Assembly: GCA_002476605.1 (NCBI GenBank)
Contig: DLLD01000001.1
Coordinates: 17,449-81,448 of the forward strand
Length of the DNA stretch: 64,000 nucleotides
Direction of reading: 5' to 3'
Source: Christensenella sp. UBA7571
Lineage (GTDB): Bacteria > Bacillota > Clostridia > Christensenellales > CAG-917
Part shown: piece by piece, positions 6,942 through 46,521 of the stretch
How the letters are laid out: each line of letters begins with the position of its first letter
Numbering within the stretch: position 1 is the stretch's first letter
The notes under the pieces: generated by a model
What the model was told of the DNA's origin: nothing
Databases searched by the model: none
The model's input: the letters and a program-made list of their open reading frames with translations, nothing else
Position numbers and translations under genes: made by a program

Positions 6942-8594
6942 ATGAATAGAATTGACGGATTAAAATTCAAAGAGATGCTGGCGGGCGGTGTCAAAGCTCT
7001 GGAAATGAACAGAACTATCGTTGACGAACTCAACGTATTTCCCGTTCCCGACGGAGACACCGGCACGAATATGTCCTTGACGCTTGCATCGGCTATGCGT
7101 GAGGCAAACGCTTGCGGGTCTTTGCTCATCGACGAAATCGCAATGGCGTTTTCAAAAGGCGCGTTGAGAGGCGCAAGAGGCAACTCCGGCGTTATATCTT
7201 CGCAAATTTTCAGAGGTTTCGCAGTCGCGCTCGAAGGCAAGGCGGATTTGACGCCCAAGACTTTTGCCGAGTGTCTCAAAAAAGGTACGGAAATCGCGTA
7301 TAGCGCGGTCACCAAGCCCAAGGAAGGCACTATTCTCACCGTCGTGAGAGTTATGGCTGAAGAGGCGGTGTCTGCAAGCAGAGGCAAAAAGGTGGAATTT
7401 GACGCTTTCCTCAAACGCGTTATCGATGCGGGTGAAGATATCCTTCAAAAAACGCCTGATATGTTGCCCGTTCTCAAAAAAGCAGGCGTCGTAGACGCCG
7501 GCGGTAGAGGTCTCGTGACGGTGTTTGACGGTATGTATCGTACGCTCGTCGGAGAGGAACTCGTCCTCATAAGCGGTGGCAAGGTGCAAGACGCCGATTT
7601 TGCGGAGATCAAGAGCGTCGGAGAATTCGATCCTCTTGAAAACGACTACGAGCACATCACCTTCCAATATTGCACGGAATATTTCATTACGCACCTCAAA
7701 AACGAGGTTACGGACGCTGCAATCGACAAATATCGCGATTATCTCACCACGATAGGCGATTGCGTGCTCGTCATCGGTGACACCGATCTCGTAAAAACGC
7801 ACGTCCATACCAATCACCCCGACAGAGCGCTCAAAGCGGCTCTCAATCTGGGTGAACTCGATGGCGTGAAAATCGAGAATATGCTCGAACAAAACCGCAA
7901 AATCCACGCCAACGACAAGCCCGAAGAGGAAGTGGAACTCAAAGATTACGCAATGGTTTCAATATGCTCCGGCGACGGTATGGCAAACATATTCAAAGAC
8001 TTGATGGTGGATATCATCGTCGAGGGCGGACAAACGATGAACCCGAGCGTTGACGATATCCTCAAAGCGGTCAACGAGGCAAACGCCAAAAACGTGTTCA
8101 TTTTGCCAAACAACTCCAATATAATTCTTGCAGCAAACCAAGCAAAAGAGCTTGCAAAGGCGCAAGTTTTCGTCATTCCGACCACCAATATGCCACAAGG
8201 CATCTCCGCATCGTTGATGTTTGACGCGGATAGTACGCCGGAAGAGAACTACGAGAGTATGTGTGAGGCAATCAAGAGCGTTGAGTGCGCGGAAGTCACT
8301 CACGCGGTGCGTTCTACGAGAATGAACCGTTTCTCAGTCAAAGAAGGCGATATAATCGGCATTTGCGACAAGAAGTTGGTGGCAAAAGGCTCGGACGTTG
8401 AACAAACGACGCTCGACACCATCGAAAAACTTGCAAAAGGCAAAGATATGTTGTCCGTATACTTCGGTCAAGACGTAACGCAAGAAGAGGCGGACTCGCT
8501 TATGCAAAAAGTTGCCGATAAGTACGATTGGCTTGAAACCGCGTGTTATAGAGGCGGTCAACCGCATTATTATTACATACTTTCGGCTGAATGA
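6942..8594 (+). CDS. DAK2 domain-containing protein (YloV-like)
   Basis: N-terminal DhaL/DAK2 motifs (PDGDTGTNM, RGNSGVI) and a C-terminal DegV-like half. Position upstream of recG. Confidence 0.85.
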   Translation: MNRIDGLKFKEMLAGGVKALEMNRTIVDELNVFPVPDGDTGTNMSLTLASAMREANACGSLLIDEIAMAFSKGALRGARGNSGVISSQIFRGFAVALEGKADLTPKTFAECLKKGTEIAYSAVTKPKEGTILTVVRVMAEEAVSASRGKKVEFDAFLKRVIDAGEDILQKTPDMLPVLKKAGVVDAGGRGLVTVFDGMYRTLVGEELVLISGGKVQDADFAEIKSVGEFDPLENDYEHITFQYCTEYFITHLKNEVTDAAIDKYRDYLTTIGDCVLVIGDTDLVKTHVHTNHPDRALKAALNLGELDGVKIENMLEQNRKIHANDKPEEEVELKDYAMVSICSGDGMANIFKDLMVDIIVEGGQTMNPSVDDILKAVNEANAKNVFILPNNSNIILAANQAKELAKAQVFVIPTTNMPQGISASLMFDADSTPEENYESMCEAIKSVECAEVTHAVRSTRMNRFSVKEGDIIGICDKKLVAKGSDVEQTTLDTIEKLAKGKDMLSVYFGQDVTQEEADSLMQKVADKYDWLETACYRGGQPHYYYILSAE

Positions 8595-8595
8595 T

Positions 8596-10623
8596 ATGTT
8601 GCAACTCAAAGATATAAAAGGCGTCGGTGACGCAACGGTGAAAAAACTTCACGACCTTGGCATCAACAGTGTGTTCGAGGTCTTTTCATTTTTACCGAGA
8701 AAATATATCGATTTGCAAAGTCCAGTAAAAGTTCTCGACGCTCCGCAAAATCAACTTTGCTTGCTCGAAGGCAGAGTGGAAAAAGTGGGGGACGTATCAC
8801 CGAGGGGCAAACGCTCCTTTTACGTCACGTTCAGTGACAACCTTTCAAACAACAAAGCTTATTTCAAAGCGACGTTTTTCAATATGCCGTTTTTGCACGA
8901 CGGATTTCAAGTGGGACAAAATTATAGAATGCTCACGAGGTTGACTTCCGATAGGGGCGCGCTGGGCGTCGTCAATCCGTCCCTTGAAAAGATAGAGAAG
9001 ATATCCAAGCTTGACGGTATTTACACCGTATATCCTCTCAAAAACGTGATAGGGCAGAACGCCTATAAGAATATAGTTTATTCCGCGCTCGACACTCTTC
9101 AAAACGTAAAGTACGAGGGAAGCCTTGCCAAAATCAACAAAGATATGGCAACTTGTTTTGAGCTTGCGCATCGTCCTCAAAGCCTCGATATTGCCGAAAG
9201 AGCGGTGAAATCGCTTGCTTCGCTCGATATCGCAATCGTGCTCTCAATTTATAGAAAACTGCGCAATAACTGCAAAAAAGAGAGAAAAGTATTTTATAAT
9301 TTAGCCGATTTTAGAATAGTAGACTATGTTTCCGCACTGAAATTCACTCCGACGCCCTCGCAAATGCAAGCGTTTGAAGATATATTGAGCGACGTCAAAT
9401 CTTCCCGTACGATGTCGAGAATAATAAGCGGTGACGTAGGAAGCGGTAAGACGGCGGTTGCGTTTTTTGCAATGTATCTTGCATCGATTTGCGGTAAACA
9501 ATGTGCACTTATGACTCCGACTGAAATTCTTGCAAAACAACACGCGGAAAAGTTTGCGCCGATTGCGCAAAAACTCGGAATAAAATACGCGCTTCTTACG
9601 AGTTCCACGACTTCGGCACAAAGAAAAGCAATACTTGAAGGACTAAATACCGGTGAAATATCTTGCGTAATAGGCACTAATGCGCTCGTTAGCGACGACG
9701 TGATATATCGCAATCTTGCGCTTGCGATTATCGACGAACAACATCGCTTTGGCGTAAACGCGAGAGGAAAACTCGAAAAAAAAGGCGCGTGCGACGTTTT
9801 GAGTATGACCGCAACGCCAATTCCTCGTTCAATGGCGTTGACTTTTTACGACGATATCGCAATATCTCGTATCGAAAAGCGTGAGGACGCCAAAACCAAT
9901 GTTATCACCACCGTTTCAAACGACCTCGACGTGCTCGTATCTCGCGTATGCAGCGCGTTAGATAGCGGAAAACAAGCGTTTATCGTCTGTCCGTCAATCG
10001 TCGATGCGGAAGGTAACGATTTGACTTCGATTGAGAGTTTTACGCGTGATTATAAAGCGGTTATAGATAAATATCCTACGTCGATTATTCACGGCAAATT
10101 GTCCAACGATGAAAAGGAAAGCGCGATGAACGATTTTTCAAACGGAAAAACTCGACTTTTGGTTGCGACTACGGTTATCGAAGTGGGTATTGACACCAAA
10201 GCGACGGAAATTTTGATCGTCAATGCAGATCGTTTTGGACTTGCGTCGCTACATCAGTTGCGCGGACGCGTCGGAAGGGACGGCTCGGAAGCGCATTGCT
10301 ATCTACATTCCTCGTCGCAAAGCGAAAAATCGGCGGAAAGACTGGATATTCTTTGCAAGAGCAACGACGGACAATTTCTTGCCGAGGCGGATTTTGCTAT
10401 GCGCGGAGCGGGTGATTTTATAGGAACGAGACAAAGCGGTCGTTCAACTACGCCTATTTTCGACTTGCAAATGAACGGTGAAGTGCTTAAAAATGCCAAA
10501 TCATATGCCGACGAGAATTTGTCAAGTCTTCCGCTTTGCGACTTGCTCGCGCTTACGAGAAGAAGCAAGGCAAGAGTGGACGCGTTCCTCGAAGAACTTG
10601 ACGAAGTTACTCTCAATAGTTGA
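8596..10623 (+). CDS. recG: ATP-dependent DNA helicase RecG
   Basis: Walker A GDVGSGKT, DEQHRFG box and QLRGRVGR. ATG at 8596 (MLQLKDIKGVG) is chosen because the 8512 start would overlap yloV by 83 nt. Confidence 0.93.
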   Translation: MLQLKDIKGVGDATVKKLHDLGINSVFEVFSFLPRKYIDLQSPVKVLDAPQNQLCLLEGRVEKVGDVSPRGKRSFYVTFSDNLSNNKAYFKATFFNMPFLHDGFQVGQNYRMLTRLTSDRGALGVVNPSLEKIEKISKLDGIYTVYPLKNVIGQNAYKNIVYSALDTLQNVKYEGSLAKINKDMATCFELAHRPQSLDIAERAVKSLASLDIAIVLSIYRKLRNNCKKERKVFYNLADFRIVDYVSALKFTPTPSQMQAFEDILSDVKSSRTMSRIISGDVGSGKTAVAFFAMYLASICGKQCALMTPTEILAKQHAEKFAPIAQKLGIKYALLTSSTTSAQRKAILEGLNTGEISCVIGTNALVSDDVIYRNLALAIIDEQHRFGVNARGKLEKKGACDVLSMTATPIPRSMALTFYDDIAISRIEKREDAKTNVITTVSNDLDVLVSRVCSALDSGKQAFIVCPSIVDAEGNDLTSIESFTRDYKAVIDKYPTSIIHGKLSNDEKESAMNDFSNGKTRLLVATTVIEVGIDTKATEILIVNADRFGLASLHQLRGRVGRDGSEAHCYLHSSSQSEKSAERLDILCKSNDGQFLAEADFAMRGAGDFIGTRQSGRSTTPIFDLQMNGEVLKNAKSYADENLSSLPLCDLLALTRRSKARVDAFLEELDEVTLNS

Positions 10624-10679
10624 TTTTATACGATTTTTGCCTCACGTGTGGCTGATTTTGTAGTATTTTGCAGTCCTAT

Positions 10680-10707
10680 TTGACATTTTTATAGGATAGT
10701 GTATAAT
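10680..10707 (+). promoter_or_regulatory. sigma-A type promoter driving the large ncRNA
   Basis: TTGACA (10680-10685), 16-nt spacer, TATAAT (10702-10707). The predicted TSS is about 10714, just before the terminal helix of the RNA. Confidence 0.6.
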
Positions 10708-10715
10708 ATAATTAA

Positions 10716-11292
10716 ATGGTGGTGCAGTATTCTAGTCAGATTCCACCGACTCGGAGGCGGGGGTAAAATATCGCCGAAGGGCATATCGATGAAGTTTCTG
10801 GTGACGGCTTCTTTTGCCCAAATTGGGGCTGTTGCTGGGAGTTAAGGTTTTTGGGCGGCTTGCAACGGCATGCAAACCCCGTACCAATTTCCGTGGAGAC
10901 CCAACTCGGTGGACAGCGTAAAAACTGCCTACTGACTGGGGTGAAACCTGATATGCGGTGTGAAAATGCTGTGTACAGTGTAGCCTGCTTTGAGTGACGT
11001 ATAGGGATTAGGGAACCACGCCTTTTCGTATGGCCAATACGCGACGGTGATTGCCCAATGAAATGTACGCTGCAAAAAAAGATAAGGGCGGGCGGAATCT
11101 GTCAAGGAAATCTTCTAGACTGTTCTTTGAGGCAATCTGGGGATTATAGTGTGCTCTAAGTGGCGATTCGGTTTCTTCTTTAAGACGATGCGACGAGTAA
11201 TAGGAAACTTCTCGGACGGTGACGACGAGTTTCGACGCAGGGAAATCCTACCGAACCTATGGCGCAAGGTTTACCCAAATTGTCACCACCAT
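10716..11292 (+). ncRNA. ole: large structured ncRNA, most likely OLE (ornate, large, extremophilic) RNA
   Basis: No ORF of 60 aa or more occurs in any frame between 10664 and 11307. A 9-bp perfect terminal helix joins atggtggtg (10716-10724) and caccaccat (11284-11292). Long-range complements are 10737-10744/11094-11101 and 10743-10749/10906-10912. It has its own consensus promoter and no terminator before the downstream 4-TM protein. The neighbourhood (4-TM protein, tlyA, nadK, argR, recN) matches the published OLE/oapA context. Confidence 0.65.
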
Positions 11293-11307
11293 CCAAAGCA
11301 ATAAAAC

Positions 11308-12213
11308 TTGAGGTATTTCGTGGATAATCTCAATCAAAAAGAAGCTGACGCTTCCAATATACCGTTGCCATCGAAAGAGCAGTCTTCCGATGGTATTTCT
11401 TTTTCGCAAAACGGTCAAAACGGCGCGGTAGATGCTAAAAATACCGTGACAATTGACAAGATTTCAACTGACGTCGCAACCGCGCGTCAACCAAAACCCG
11501 ATCACCCCGACAAGAAGAAAAAGCCCAAGAAAAAACGCAATATTTGGTGGATAAAAGCGATAATAATATCGCTCGTTTTGTCCGCGTTTTTCTCGTATAT
11601 AAGCAACCTCGTCGAGAACGCAGATCAGCTCGTCGTCGTTATCGTTTTGCTTGCGTTCCTCGTGCTTACGGGGATTTTGTTCGACGCCATCGGCGTGGCG
11701 GTGACTTCGTGCGACGTAACGCCTATTATATCGATGGCGTCAAGAAAGGTTTACGGTGCAAAAACCGCGTTAAACCTCGTCAAAAACAGCGATACCGTAT
11801 CAAGCGTTTGCAACGATATAATCGGTGACATTTTCAGTATTATATCCGGTGCTTGTTCGGCTGCGCTCGTCGTAAAAATCACCATATCGCTTGAAGAAAC
11901 GTGGCAAATCGTCGTATCGATTGCAGTGTCCGCTCTCGTGTCGGCAATGACCATCGGCGGTAAGGCGTTTATGAAGAAGATTGCAATCGACAATTCCAAA
12001 GACTTCGTAATGTTCGTAGCGCGAATACTCGCAATTTTCTCAAAAGAAGAGCGAAAGATCCGCAAGAAAAACAAAGCCGATAAGGCGGAAAAGTCGGGTA
12101 AAACGGACAAATCAGCCAAATCCGACAAAAACGAGAAAGTCGAAAAATCGGATAAAAACGATAACAAAACCGCCCCACAATCGACCAAATCAAAAGACAA
12201 AAAAGCAAAATAA
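11308..12213 (+). CDS. oapA: four-TM membrane protein, OapA-like (OLE-associated protein A candidate) with Lys-rich N- and C-terminal extensions
   Basis: Lies immediately 3' of the ncRNA with no terminator between them. The core has 4 predicted TM helices (IWWIKAIIISLVLSAFF, LVVVIVLLAFLVLTGILF, IIGDIFSIISGACSAALVV, IVVSIAVSALVSAMTIGG). The start is uncertain (TTG 11308 or GTG 11320). Confidence 0.55.
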   Translation: MRYFVDNLNQKEADASNIPLPSKEQSSDGISFSQNGQNGAVDAKNTVTIDKISTDVATARQPKPDHPDKKKKPKKKRNIWWIKAIIISLVLSAFFSYISNLVENADQLVVVIVLLAFLVLTGILFDAIGVAVTSCDVTPIISMASRKVYGAKTALNLVKNSDTVSSVCNDIIGDIFSIISGACSAALVVKITISLEETWQIVVSIAVSALVSAMTIGGKAFMKKIAIDNSKDFVMFVARILAIFSKEERKIRKKNKADKAEKSGKTDKSAKSDKNEKVEKSDKNDNKTAPQSTKSKDKKAK

Positions 12214-12246: not shown

Positions 12247-12954
12247 ATGCGACTTGACAAGTATATACAAGACAAATTCAATCTAAAATCGCGCACTTAC
12301 GCCGAAAACCTTATAAAAACGGGCAACGTTTTCGTTGACGGAAAAGCGGTTACCAAAAGCGGTGAAGACGTTGACGACGACAACGTCGTCGAGGTTTTAG
12401 ACAATCAAAACTTTGCTTCGCAAGGCGCGTATAAACTTGAAAAGGCGTTTGAAGAGTGGAATCTCGACGTTACGGGCAAATATTGCGCGGATATCGGTTG
12501 CTCAAACGGCGGATTTACCGATTGTCTTTTAAGGCGCGGTGCAGACGAGGTGCTTGCGGTTGACGTCGGGGAGTGTGCGCTCGATCAAAAATTGTTAGAT
12601 AGCGGAAAAGTTAAATTTTTGCGTGCAAACGCAAGGGAACTTCCGCCTCTTGAACAAGTCGATTTTTTGTGCAGTGATTTGAGCTTTATTTCTCTAAAAT
12701 ACGTGCTCGGTTCTATGTTTTCGCTATTGAAAAACGGCGGAGAAGCGGTGGTGCTCGTCAAACCTCAATTTGAACTCGACAAGTCCGCACTCAACAAAAA
12801 CGGCATAGTAAAGAGTGAAAAATTGCGCAAAAACGCCCTTGAAAACGTCAAAAATTATGCCGTTTCAGCCGGATTTCAAGTGGTGAGCGAAACGATATCG
12901 CCCGTCAGATACGATAACAAAAATATCGAGTATTTGTTATTATTGAGAAAATAA
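12247..12954 (+). CDS. tlyA: TlyA-family rRNA 2'-O-methyltransferase (S4 + FtsJ domains)
   Basis: MRLDKYI...S4 domain and DIGCSNGGFTDCLL SAM motif. Confidence 0.88.
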   Translation: MRLDKYIQDKFNLKSRTYAENLIKTGNVFVDGKAVTKSGEDVDDDNVVEVLDNQNFASQGAYKLEKAFEEWNLDVTGKYCADIGCSNGGFTDCLLRRGADEVLAVDVGECALDQKLLDSGKVKFLRANARELPPLEQVDFLCSDLSFISLKYVLGSMFSLLKNGGEAVVLVKPQFELDKSALNKNGIVKSEKLRKNALENVKNYAVSAGFQVVSETISPVRYDNKNIEYLLLLRK

Positions 12955-12984
12955 CGTATTTTCGTAAAACCGTATAATGCCATA

Positions 12985-13018
12985 TAAAAAAAGCGACTTG
13001 CGTCGCTTTCGTTTTTTC
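12985..13018. terminator. bidirectional intrinsic terminator (tlyA / convergent small gene)
   Basis: Stem aagcgac (12991-12997) / gtcgctt (13002-13008), flanked by an A-run and a T-run. Confidence 0.75.
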
Positions 13019-13025
13019 AATCAAA

Positions 13026-13334
13026 CTATTTTGTATCTTCGCCCTTGTTGGCGGTATCTTCTTTTCCCATCTCCGAAGTATCTTCGTTTTGTTCGGCTTG
13101 TTGTGTGTCGTCCGATTTTGACTTCTCGTTCTTGGATTTTTTGGATTTCTTTTTCTTGTCGTCGTCGGCAATTTGGTCTTGTTTTCCGACCTTGGTGTCG
13201 GGGTAGGACGGCTTTGATTTTTTGTTCTTGCCGAAGAATACGCACACGACTATGATTATAGCAAAAATAAGTCCCGAGAGTCCCGCGACGAGTTTCGTGC
13301 CAAATTCGGAGATACAAATCAAAGTTTCAAGCAT
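13026..13334 (-). CDS. small single-TM membrane protein with Lys/Ser/Asp/Glu-rich tail, unknown function
   Basis: TM segment LVAGLSGLIFAIIIVVCVFF followed by a charged low-complexity tail. The ATG at 13334 sits 6 nt after a consensus -10, so it is a leaderless candidate. Confidence 0.5.
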   Translation of the reverse strand: MLETLICISEFGTKLVAGLSGLIFAIIIVVCVFFGKNKKSKPSYPDTKVGKQDQIADDDKKKKSKKSKNEKSKSDDTQQAEQNEDTSEMGKEDTANKGEDTK

Positions 13335-13340
13335 ATTTTT

Positions 13341-13368
13341 ATTATACAACGAGTAGCAAAAAAGTCAA
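13341..13368 (-). promoter_or_regulatory. sigma-A promoter of the small membrane protein gene
   Basis: On the minus strand: TTGACT (13368-13363), 16-nt spacer, TATAAT (13346-13341). Confidence 0.55.
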
Positions 13369-13471
13369 ACACATTGACGCAAAGCGCAAAAATGCATAAA
13401 GTTGCAAAAAGTATATAAAATATTCATTTTATACTTGTATTCAATGGGGGAAAGTTGTATAATACGCATAA

Positions 13472-14278
13472 ATGAAAGAGAAAGTTGCAATCGTTACAAA
13501 AGCGGGCTTGACCGATATAAAAGAGCGTATTACCATCGTTGACGAGATAAGAAACGACGGCAATTTTGACGTGTACGAGCTTAAAGTCGGTGAGGAATAC
13601 GAATACGGCACTTCGATAGCCGTCGTTTTCGGCGGTGACGGAACTATGCTCGAAGCAGTCCGAGAAGCAAAAGGCAGAAATATTTCGTTCTTTGGCGTAA
13701 ATCTCGGCAATCTCGGTTTTTTGACGTCTTGCGAGAAAAACGAGAGTGCGAAAAATATCGTAAACGCCCTAAAAGAGCGCAAATGCGCGGAGCGTATGCT
13801 TCTTTGCGGAATCGTAAACGGTAACGATTTTCAAGCACTCAACGAGGTCGTGATAAAGAGCGCGACGTCGAGACCTATATACGTTGACTTATATATAGAC
13901 GGCAATTTTGTTGATTGCTACCATAGCGACGGCGCAATCGTGGCGTCTCCGACGGGCTCGACGGCGTATTCGCTTTCGGCGGGAGGACCTATCGTCGCTC
14001 CGAGCGTCGACGCGCTTACTATCAATCCGATTTGCCCGCACTCGCTTCATTCTCGTCCGCTCGTGGTGGGCGCAAACTCGAAAATCGTCCTTTCGCTTCA
14101 CGGCAGTGAGACGGCAAGCGTTTTTGCGGACGGAAAATTGATTTCAAGTGCGAAAGACGGAGACGAAATCGTCGTGAAAAAATCCGAAAACAAAGCAAAA
14201 TTTATCATTGCAAATAACGATGATTTTTATAAAAAACTACTTCAAAAGATGAACAGATGGGGAGTTACCTCACGGTAA
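13472..14278 (+). CDS. nadK: NAD kinase
   Basis: VVFGGDGTML and NLGNLGFLT motifs. Confidence 0.93.
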   Translation: MKEKVAIVTKAGLTDIKERITIVDEIRNDGNFDVYELKVGEEYEYGTSIAVVFGGDGTMLEAVREAKGRNISFFGVNLGNLGFLTSCEKNESAKNIVNALKERKCAERMLLCGIVNGNDFQALNEVVIKSATSRPIYVDLYIDGNFVDCYHSDGAIVASPTGSTAYSLSAGGPIVAPSVDALTINPICPHSLHSRPLVVGANSKIVLSLHGSETASVFADGKLISSAKDGDEIVVKKSENKAKFIIANNDDFYKKLLQKMNRWGVTSR

Positions 14279-16587: not shown

Positions 16588-16908
16588 GCGAGTTAGCCGG
16601 ACGGTCGCGTGAAATAATCGAGGAAAGTCCGAGCATCATAGGGCACGGGTGCCGGGTAACTCCCGGTGAAGGCGACTTCAAGGACAGTGCAACAGAAAAA
16701 TACCGCCGATTTTTCGGTAAGGATGGAAAGGCGAGGTAAGAGCTCACCCGCAATTTGGCAACAATGCGCGATGTAAACCCCACTCGATGCAAGATAGGGA
16801 ACGTGAAATGTGGCCCGCAAGTTCCCGACATCGCTTGAGGCGTGCAGAAATGTACGTCCTAGATAGATGACCGTCAAACACAGAACTCGGCTTACAGACT
16901 AATCTCGC
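16588..16908 (+). ncRNA. rnpB: RNase P RNA (bacterial, type A-like)
   Basis: Universal GAGGAAAGUCCGAGC at 16620-16634, followed by AUAGGGCACGGGUGCCGGGUAAC...ACAGAAAAAUACCGCC. The 3' end has ACAGAACUCGGCUUACAG. P1 pairs gcgag (16588-) with ctcgc (-16908). Confidence 0.9.
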
Positions 16909-17041
16909 TATGAAAGAAGAAGGCGCAAGAGTCTTCTTTTTTCTTTTGTAAAACGATATTCTAACAACTTAAAATTGCATTTTTTAATGAATTTTGCGCG
17001 GTTTTCTTACTAAAAAATGAAATATAGGCAATAAATAACGT

Positions 17042-18424
17042 ATGGTTTATGCAATAACTATCGTAACGTTTGCGGTTTTCTTCGTCATATACTTACTTAC
17101 GCGTGAAAAACCGCGCGATAAAGACGCAAAGAAGCTCGGTGAAACGGAGTATAATTCCGCTTGCAAAGATTTCGTGCGACTTATGCCGTTGCCCGAGGAG
17201 TGTGGAACGGTCAACGATAAATTTTATAAAAGGCATATAAAATTTGCGCTTTTTACCCTCAAAAACAAAAAGTATAAGGGGATATTTGACGATTTTCTTG
17301 AAAATAAGGAGCTTTTGCAACCGCTTTTGAAGGCGGATTATTCTCGTCTAGCGGATTTGGCAAGCGTGCAAAACGAACCGAGGTGTGTAAAACTTGCAAG
17401 ATTTTGCCTTGAAAGTTCCGATTACATCTTTATAGCCGATCGAGTGAAAACTCTATTTGACGAGCAAAACAAGATACGCACGATAACTTTCGGTGAAATT
17501 TCGTATATGAAAGAGGCGTTTTTGTACGCATTGCTTGAAAAGGCGTATTTCGTATTCGATGACTTAAAAACGTTGACCAAAGTTATGAAAATCGCAAAAA
17601 AGTACGTAAACGACGACGGAAACGCGTTGCTTGACAAAAAATATAAGGCATATTCAAAGTCAAAACTGTTTTTGAGTTTGTGCGCGATAAGCGCGGGGTA
17701 TAGCGGTGAAGCACATCAAAAATCTTTTATTGATACCGTTGACGATATATACGCAAAGTACGCAAGATTGCTCGATAGCGTGCAAAGCGTATTATATTAC
17801 GATTTTTCCGTGCATTATTCTCCGCTTGAAATATTCGATAAATTCGATAGTTTTGCAAACGCGACGGAAACGCAAAAAATCAATTTTCTTTCGTTGTTTT
17901 CAAAGCTATCCGACAAGGAAAATCTTGACGAATTTATGTATGCAATAAGAGCGGAGAAGTATATGACGACGTCGTCGGCGGGGCACGCAAAAGTGCGGCG
18001 TAATTCGCTACTGGATAGAAAATACTGGGTTATATCTCAACGTCAAAACCTATCTATGCTTGCGTCGGCATTGCGTTCGGATATATTTATGAAGATATAC
18101 TTTAACGACTCAAAAGAGGCTAAAAAGAAGAAAAGTATTTCAAAAATAATCGATTTTGAGAATACTTTTGAGCCGATATATAAGTTTTCAACGATAAATT
18201 TCGGTTTATCCGTGCAAAACGACGTTTTGAGGTTGTCCCCGCATTTACCGCAAAACGTAGTGAGCGCGGACGTCGCGTTCAAATCGAAAGATACCACGCA
18301 TAGAGTGAAAATTCTAAAAGGAGAGGAAGAAAAAATATATCTCGGAAATACGCAAATCAAAGGAACGCACCTTATAAAACTTGCCGACACGCCTCTCGAT
18401 ATAACCGTCGTAGTGAAAGAATAA
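17042..18424 (+). CDS. hypothetical membrane-anchored protein (N-terminal TM, 460 aa)
   Basis: Long ORF with N-terminal TM VYAITIVTFAVFFVIYLL. It is AT-richer than its neighbours and has no motif I can assign. Confidence 0.55.
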   Translation: MVYAITIVTFAVFFVIYLLTREKPRDKDAKKLGETEYNSACKDFVRLMPLPEECGTVNDKFYKRHIKFALFTLKNKKYKGIFDDFLENKELLQPLLKADYSRLADLASVQNEPRCVKLARFCLESSDYIFIADRVKTLFDEQNKIRTITFGEISYMKEAFLYALLEKAYFVFDDLKTLTKVMKIAKKYVNDDGNALLDKKYKAYSKSKLFLSLCAISAGYSGEAHQKSFIDTVDDIYAKYARLLDSVQSVLYYDFSVHYSPLEIFDKFDSFANATETQKINFLSLFSKLSDKENLDEFMYAIRAEKYMTTSSAGHAKVRRNSLLDRKYWVISQRQNLSMLASALRSDIFMKIYFNDSKEAKKKKSISKIIDFENTFEPIYKFSTINFGLSVQNDVLRLSPHLPQNVVSADVAFKSKDTTHRVKILKGEEEKIYLGNTQIKGTHLIKLADTPLDITVVVKE

Positions 18425-46242: not shown

Positions 46243-46521
46243 TCACCTCAATAAACTAATAATTGCATTTGCAAGAGCTTCGTTTGACACCGCAATCGAC
46301 TTTACGCCGTCGCGATGCAGAGCCTCGCAAAGATTATCCACTTCAAAGACGGGACAATCGGACATTTTTTTTGCAATTCTATCTCTATATTTGTCACCCG
46401 AGGTCGAGGACACGAGCACGACCTTTGCAAGACGCTTTTTCTCGCAAATTATGTCTTCACCGTACAAAACGGCGTTTGCTCTTTGCGCAAGACCTATATA
46501 TGCTTTGATTTTATCAGTCAT
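46243..46521 (-). CDS. ylxQ: L7Ae-family RNA-binding protein YlxQ
   Basis: 92 aa with IGLAQRANAVLYGEDI pattern. Conserved nusA-ylxR-ylxQ-infB order. Confidence 0.85.
   Translation of the reverse strand: MTDKIKAYIGLAQRANAVLYGEDIICEKKRLAKVVLVSSTSGDKYRDRIAKKMSDCPVFEVDNLCEALHRDGVKSIAVSNEALANAIISLLR

Follow-up and report, generated by a model that had tools for sequence, protein, structure and literature searches.

An OLE RNA upstream of oapA in an uncultured gut Clostridia bacterium

The interval 10703-11305 of the window (the whole 64,000-nucleotide stretch of DNA analysed here) is almost certainly a standard OLE RNA which, with oapA as the next gene, makes up the ole-oapA locus of a gut bacterium from an uncultured lineage of Clostridia. 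OLE is a large structured bacterial RNA, the family of which has been known since 2006; it is well studied, and thousands of copies are known, those of uncultured gut Clostridia included. The locus belongs to a known family in a lineage that has already been surveyed for OLE, and its identification is routine annotation rather than discovery. The features at and around the RNA gene are as follows.

8512-10623, upstream of OLE: recG
10680-10707, + strand: predicted ole promoter of the sigma-70 type, TTGACA (10680-10685), 16-nt spacer, TATAAT (10702-10707), 12 of 12 consensus positions
10703-11305, + strand: OLE RNA gene (limits are those of the Rfam RF01071 match)
11310-11313, + strand: predicted ribosome-binding site of oapA, GAGG, 6 nt ahead of the GTG
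11320-12213, + strand: oapA, GTG start, 297 aa, predicted four-helix membrane partner of OLE RNA
12247-12954, + strand: tlyA, rRNA cytidine-2'-O-methyltransferase of the TlyA family (TIGR00478, 187.9 bits; cut-off 185.8)
12989-13017, both strands: predicted bidirectional intrinsic terminator, G+C-containing stem of 8-9 bp with T-runs on each strand
13026-13334, probably - strand: predicted gene separating tlyA from nadK; its product would be a small membrane protein with one transmembrane pass and a charged tail

A preliminary description of this DNA had proposed an OLE RNP locus with oapA downstream or, alternatively, a new large RNA at the site where OLE would lie, and had called for an Rfam search and for a test of covariation in relatives. 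We scanned the whole window with Rfam 15, and two matches exceeded the gathering score. RF01071 (OLE) matched 10703-11305 on the + strand with 403 bits (gathering score 50; E 6.3e-115) over model positions 1-616 of 616, non-truncated; a new large RNA in the OLE position is excluded. The second match was the class A RNase P RNA (RF00010) at 16589-16911. In the OLE alignment, the long invariant strands of the family and nearly all of its helices were kept, and 131 of the 155 model pairs that could be placed on the window sequence were standard pairs. The invariant strands common to canonical OLE and the window were GCAGUAUUCUAGUCAG, AUCGAUGAAG, GUGGAGACC, GUAGCCUG and CUAGACUG; the conserved junction strands AUCGAUGAAG (10785-10794) and GUGGAGACC (10894-10902), considered with regard to the kink-turn near P5, agree with the OLE consensus. 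The mature RNA, roughly 590 nt long, probably extends from about 10714 to 11292-11305.

We then assessed the secondary structure. Three pairs of distant strands in the window, noted in the preliminary description, were perfect complements: ATGGTGGTG (10716-10724) and CACCACCAT (11284-11292), CAGATTCC (10737-10744) and GGAATCTG (11094-11101), and CCACCGA (10743-10749) and TCGGTGG (10906-10912). The observed counts of perfect complements were reached in 35% of shuffles for 9-mers, 11% for 8-mers (count 5) and 5% for 7-mers; because complements are this common in shuffled sequence, the helices prove nothing by themselves, and we relied on covariation in relatives for their validation. The minimum-energy fold of the single sequence was not significant either (z = -1.28; 12 of 100 shuffles were at least as stable), and its energy carried no weight in the assignment. 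For covariation, 42 full-length OLE sequences were aligned, and the Rfam structure together with the first two of the three proposed helices was projected onto the alignment. As controls, the 3' partners were moved by 1-3 columns, and 500 shuffles were made. Standard pairs occupied 85.1% of the cells, compared with 39.5-45.6% in the slid controls, and 111 pairs showed double changes, in which both sides were altered, compared with 49-63; none of the 500 shuffles matched the observed pairing values. RNAalifold without a prior structure predicted 158 pairs, showing double changes in 88, and independently recovered the first two helices. The strands concerned are listed below.

10716-10723, + strand: 5' arm of the terminal helix, pairs with 11285-11292
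11285-11292, + strand: 3' arm of the terminal helix, ACCACCAT, in which CCACC is invariant in 42 of 42 sequences
10724-10735, + strand: invariant strand GCAGUAUUCUAG, predicted partner CUAGACUGU at 11115-11123 (RNAalifold consensus)
10737-10752, + strand: 5' strand of the long-range stem, 10737-10744/11094-11101 and 10746-10752/11086-11091
11086-11101, + strand: 3' strand of the long-range stem, pairs with 10737-10752

In the terminal helix, 95.2% of the cells were paired, and three pairs showed double changes (e.g., U-A, C-G and U-G at one position); this helix was also present in the minimum-energy fold of the single sequence. It had been proposed as a helix of nine base pairs. The supported helix comprises eight of these; the innermost pair, G10724-C11284, is taken by other helices in both the Rfam and the RNAalifold models. 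Since the strand 10724-10735 and its predicted partner at 11115-11123 are invariant or nearly so, covariation is neutral on the helix that they would form. The second proposed helix, 10737-10744/11094-11101, stood in full, with 93.6% of the cells paired and double changes in six of its eight pairs, and its extension in the RNAalifold model (10746-10752/11086-11091) showed double changes in five of six pairs. These data support the long-range stem as the one that closes the 5' domain of OLE RNA. The 5' strand 10716-10752 has three separate 3' pairing segments, giving the terminal helix and the long stem, and the 3' domain covers 11131-11284. In published OLE structures, one domain comprises P1, P2 and P10-P15 and is connected to the other by a long P3 stem (PMC12265935); on the basis of this layout, the terminal helix is most likely P1, and the helix 10737-10744/11094-11101 is most likely part of P3. 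The third proposed helix, 10743-10749/10906-10912, found no support and was set aside. Although 78% of its cells were paired, 127 of 500 shuffles had as many double-change pairs, and its 3' arm sits in a competing local hairpin of 12 covarying pairs.

Two elements of the RNA resemble functional sites that have been described in other OLE RNAs.

11210-11230, + strand: hairpin in the 3' domain matching the published OapB site (P13); its tetraloop is GUGA (11219-11222), and its stem is longer by one nucleotide on the 5' side
11032-11035, + strand: palindromic apical loop (GGCC) of the longest hairpin

The determinants of OapB binding are a GNRA loop and a single-nucleotide bulge (PMC7936274). The hairpin at 11210-11230 has both features and is a putative OapB site: its tetraloop was of the GNRA type in 42 of 42 relatives, and a single 3'-side deletion in the cmscan alignment makes its stem asymmetric. 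The apical loop was GGCC in 30 of the 42 relatives and GCGC in the other 12; i.e., a palindrome was present in all of them. Cryo-EM of OLE has shown that the self-complementary apical loop L9.3 joins two molecules by a kissing loop, and switching between palindromes has been reported (PMC12286853); the GGCC/GCGC switch is consistent with this dimer interface. The palindrome (11029-11038; alignment columns 391-400) often lies within a palindrome of 8 nt, such as UUGCGCAA or UCGGCCGA. The variants that the cryo-EM study quotes do not include GCGC (PMC12286853).

A near-consensus promoter had been reported directly upstream of the RNA. It matches the consensus at all 12 positions, and a 12/12 promoter with a 16- or 17-nt spacer was found in the same register in 37 of the 46 relatives examined, in which the spacer and flanks diverge. 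This is good comparative evidence for a predicted strong promoter dedicated to ole. Perfect consensus promoters are uncommon; that this one is both perfect and conserved implies very strong transcription and suggests very high expression of OLE. Transcription is predicted to start near 10714. Consistent with the earlier claim that no terminator precedes the next gene, no terminator-like site was found on the + strand between 10700 and 11320. The terminator at 12989-13017 serves the end of tlyA as well as the end of the convergent minus-strand gene. With no terminator before oapA and one after tlyA, OLE, oapA and tlyA probably form a single transcription unit in which tlyA is the last gene, and nadK, argR and recN are probably transcribed apart from it. 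The preliminary description had placed the RNA in a tlyA-nadK-argR-recN neighbourhood; these genes are present in this order, but the minus-strand gene and the terminator split tlyA from nadK. The minus-strand gene has a candidate promoter of its own (TTGACT, 16 nt, TATAAT at 13368-13341). We placed the gene on this strand on account of strand composition and the promoter there; the overlapping ORF of 92 aa on the + strand (12977-13255), with no family match, an AT skew of -0.67 and the minus-strand promoter against it, is probably spurious. The OLE gene of Halalkalibacterium halodurans is driven by a promoter of its own, and the RNA presumably arises there by processing of a longer transcript (PMC9723947).

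The gene at 11320-12213 is, as judged from its sequence, oapA. The GTG at 11320, 15 nt past the end of the Rfam match at 11305, was set as the start by homologues that share the first residue and begin MDNLNQ. The motifs MASRKVYG, DxxGD, SG and GGK were invariant in all OLE-adjacent proteins examined, those of canonical loci included. The DxxxD motif, which separates OapA from CNNM domains (PMC11332333), corresponds to D166-I-I-G-D170, and D166, G169 and D170 did not vary among 16 close homologues or among 11 diverse proteins encoded next to OLE. The translation contains four hydrophobic segments, at about residues 76-98, 103-128, 164-187 and 194-217. The CNNM model PF01595 scored 25.3 bits against OapA, below its cut-off of 28.4, and the top sequence matches in the PDB were the CorB structures 7M1T and 7M1U (E 0.45); 7M1U has been named as the structure nearest to OapA (PMC11332333). 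The transmembrane domain of CNNM/MpfA/CorB is a distant relative of OapA. No NCBIfam model matched the protein. An AlphaFold2 model built on a 16-sequence alignment placed long helices at the hydrophobic segments; its confidence was low (mean pLDDT 44.5, pTM 0.25), and as the model was too poor, no fold search was made from it. At 297 aa, the protein is about 80-100 aa longer than canonical OapA (195-223 aa), and both tails contribute to this difference: the N-terminal tail of about 75 aa ends in KKKKPKKKRN, and the C-terminal tail of about 55 aa is lysine-rich. In OapA throughout the clade (11320-11545 and 12050-12210 in the window), the N-terminal extension is variable, of low complexity and closed by an invariant DKKKKxxKKKRNxWW, and the C-terminal tail is rich in lysine.

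Homologues of OapA number in the hundreds in metagenomes, and none is informatively named. We searched for related loci with an alignment of 16 OapA homologues, scanning one genome per species, and obtained 51 loci. OLE was detected directly upstream of the OapA homologue by nhmmer in 51 of the 51, in agreement with the OLE RNP locus first proposed. The closer loci keep the order rpe, orf81, asp23, fakA, recG, OLE, oapA, tlyA, nadK, argR, recN, orf460. Distant loci (e.g., that of Bacillus fonticola) keep OLE-oapA and mostly tlyA, nadK, argR and recN, whereas the recG block is absent upstream; a recG gene upstream of OLE is a trait of this uncultured gut Clostridia clade alone. The product of tlyA contains FtsJ and S4 domains (Pfam). 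The nearest loci, with 92-99% protein identity, come from gut MAGs labelled Clostridiales or Christensenella, and the relatives are gut Clostridia represented by MAGs only, with one complete chromosome of 1.65 Mb in the group. The host is a Gram-positive member of the Bacillota, as is typical for OLE, the hosts of which are mostly anaerobes or extremophiles, and we infer an anaerobic lifestyle from its gut origin.

Several further observations were made at these loci. The RNase P RNA at 16589-16911 (+ strand, 249 bits) lies directly after recN, as it does in L001 and L002; L013, L029 and L039 carry it in reverse orientation. The protein of 460 aa that follows (17042-18424, + strand) is conserved after recN and rnpB throughout the clade with 29-93% identity and has no Pfam or NCBIfam match. 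In CP091723.1, the MAG chromosome of 1.65 Mb, the recG-OLE-oapA locus occurs twice, near each end of the record (L007, 28633-41600, and L043, 1633484-1646451, with scores of 517 and 513 bits); this may reflect overlapping ends of the assembly where the record was circularised, or else a true duplication. Five close MAGs, namely L001 (CAVANK010000003.1), L008, L011, L014 and L029, carry names that are ill-suited to a Clostridia locus (Butyrivibrio crossotus, Bacteroides sp., Phascolarctobacterium succinatutens, Bacteroidaceae) and are likely mislabelled bins.

We considered whether the conservation of the interval might reflect something other than a free-standing RNA. Several ORFs of 30-58 aa lie within it, as would be the case for a small protein-coding gene or a degraded pseudogene. 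However, each of the six frames is interrupted by 4-13 stop codons, the variable columns of the OLE alignment fall about equally on the three codon phases (141, 133 and 139; 201 columns per phase), i.e., without codon periodicity, and the substitutions across helices are compensatory; we regard a coding origin as hardly credible. As the preliminary description had stated, no ORF of at least 60 aa was found within 10664-11307, the longest inside being 58 aa, and the conserved short ORF that it had set against its own reading was not borne out by any coding signal. Its remark that the interval is more balanced in G+C than the spacers around it was correct for spacers (0.46-0.525 across the RNA, compared with 0.385 at 10600-10799, a 200-nt segment that contains the upstream spacer, and 0.295 in a spacer near 13300-13499), but the RNA is not distinct from coding DNA, since the flanking genes range from 0.41 to 0.51. 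That the interval is a long structured 5' leader regulating oapA in cis would agree with the lack of a terminator before oapA and with a ribosome-binding site that begins 5 nt past the end of the Rfam match. Nevertheless, such a leader is very improbable: the conserved, covarying multi-domain structure covers about 600 nt, members of this family are known to build up as a separate, abundant RNA (about 630 nt) in assemblies with proteins (PMC9723947), and the terminal helix, by pairing the 5' end with 11285-11292, closes the RNA as a unit of its own before the ribosome-binding site.

A further question is whether this OLE RNA is a reduced one, the protein partners of which may be fewer or different. 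As variant 1, Fernando and Breaker (2024) described an OLE with shorter P7, P8 and P9 stems that is found in uncultured gut clades and often lacks the OapB site (PMC11332333). The window copy shares with canonical OLE (H. halodurans, Clostridium acetobutylicum) the whole model, the covarying helices, the palindromic apical loop and the bulged GNRA hairpin, and canonical OLE is likewise followed immediately by oapA and then by tlyA, nadK, argR and recN; the recG-fakA-asp23 block upstream is the part of the flank that distant loci do not share. Its Rfam score of 403 bits (382-414 in the clade) is about 120 bits lower than the 524-541 of canonical OLE, its P7-like hairpin is 41 nt long where canonical copies have 62-79 nt (a difference of 20-38 nt), and a small hairpin has 15 nt instead of about 21 nt (about 6 nt less). 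With its lineage of uncultured gut Clostridia, its lower score and its shortened P7-region stem, the copy is similar to variant 1, and the small MAG chromosome mentioned above also fits a reduced element. On the other hand, a single major hairpin is shortened. The P8-like element (36 nt; 38-39 in canonical OLE) and the P9-like element (96 nt; 95-97) are of normal length, the remaining segments are within about 3 nt of canonical lengths, and the OapB-site hairpin is intact with its GNRA loop and bulge. Because P8-like, P9-like and OapB site are normal, the window copy does not correspond to variant 1 as described. The published ranges (310-390 bits for non-truncated variant 1, at least 390 bits for full-length OLE) belong to the authors' own covariance model (PMC11332333), and the 403 bits obtained with Rfam cannot be placed on that scale. 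Variant 1 is moreover a sub-class inside OLE and no different kind of element. Taken together, assignment to variant 1 is a real possibility, although we lean somewhat against it, and the interval remains an OLE RNA under either assignment; no result spoke against its membership of the family.

The protein partners of this OLE RNA may nonetheless differ. Among the small ORFs of the 64-kb window, no KOW, L7Ae or S21 Pfam match was found that would identify oapB, oapC or bS21; that oapB and oapC were not found in a window of this size says little either way. A further gene in the window is related to an OLE partner.

46243-46521, - strand: YlxQ-like protein of 92 aa, between ylxR and infB in a rimP-nusA-ylxR-X-infB operon

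YlxQ is a kink-turn binder of the L7Ae family, and the kink-turn near P5 of OLE is the place where OapC binds. The YlxQ-like protein had no Pfam match, but a profile of 21 of its homologues matched the PDB entries 3V7Q (YlxQ; E 7.9e-9) and 3ON1 (E 0.006). The OLE partner OapC/YbxF is its paralogue. The gut clades with shortened OLE largely do without OapB and OapC (Fernando and Breaker 2024, PMC11332333). From the longer OapA, the YlxQ match and this published scarcity, an altered set of partners might be envisaged in a genome-reduced gut clade, in which the tails of OapA would take over the contacts of OapB, YlxQ would replace OapC at the kink-turn and, given the tight OLE-oapA-tlyA transcription unit, TlyA would possibly act on the OLE RNA itself. 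We consider this arrangement unlikely.

For the standard ole-oapA locus, the following course may be proposed. Transcription would proceed from about 10714 through OLE into oapA and tlyA and stop at 12989-13017, and OLE RNA would presumably be processed out of this transcript as reported for H. halodurans. By analogy with other species, two OLE molecules would dimerise via the palindromic loop GGCC at 11032-11035, a dimer of the four-helix OapA would hold the RNA at the membrane, and the particle may assist the cell under ethanol, cold or excess Mg2+ and on poor carbon sources; function and partners in those species have been described (PMC9723947, PMC7936274, PMC12286853, PMC12265935).

The value of the locus lies mainly in its correct annotation, as the standard Rfam model detects this OLE copy at once. 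In a gut lineage with small genomes, it is a clean case of an OLE RNA that has one hairpin trimmed and is accompanied by an enlarged OapA. Without opening a new question, the locus and its relatives, with the trimmed hairpin, the palindrome switch and the promoter, could help work on a minimal OLE particle.
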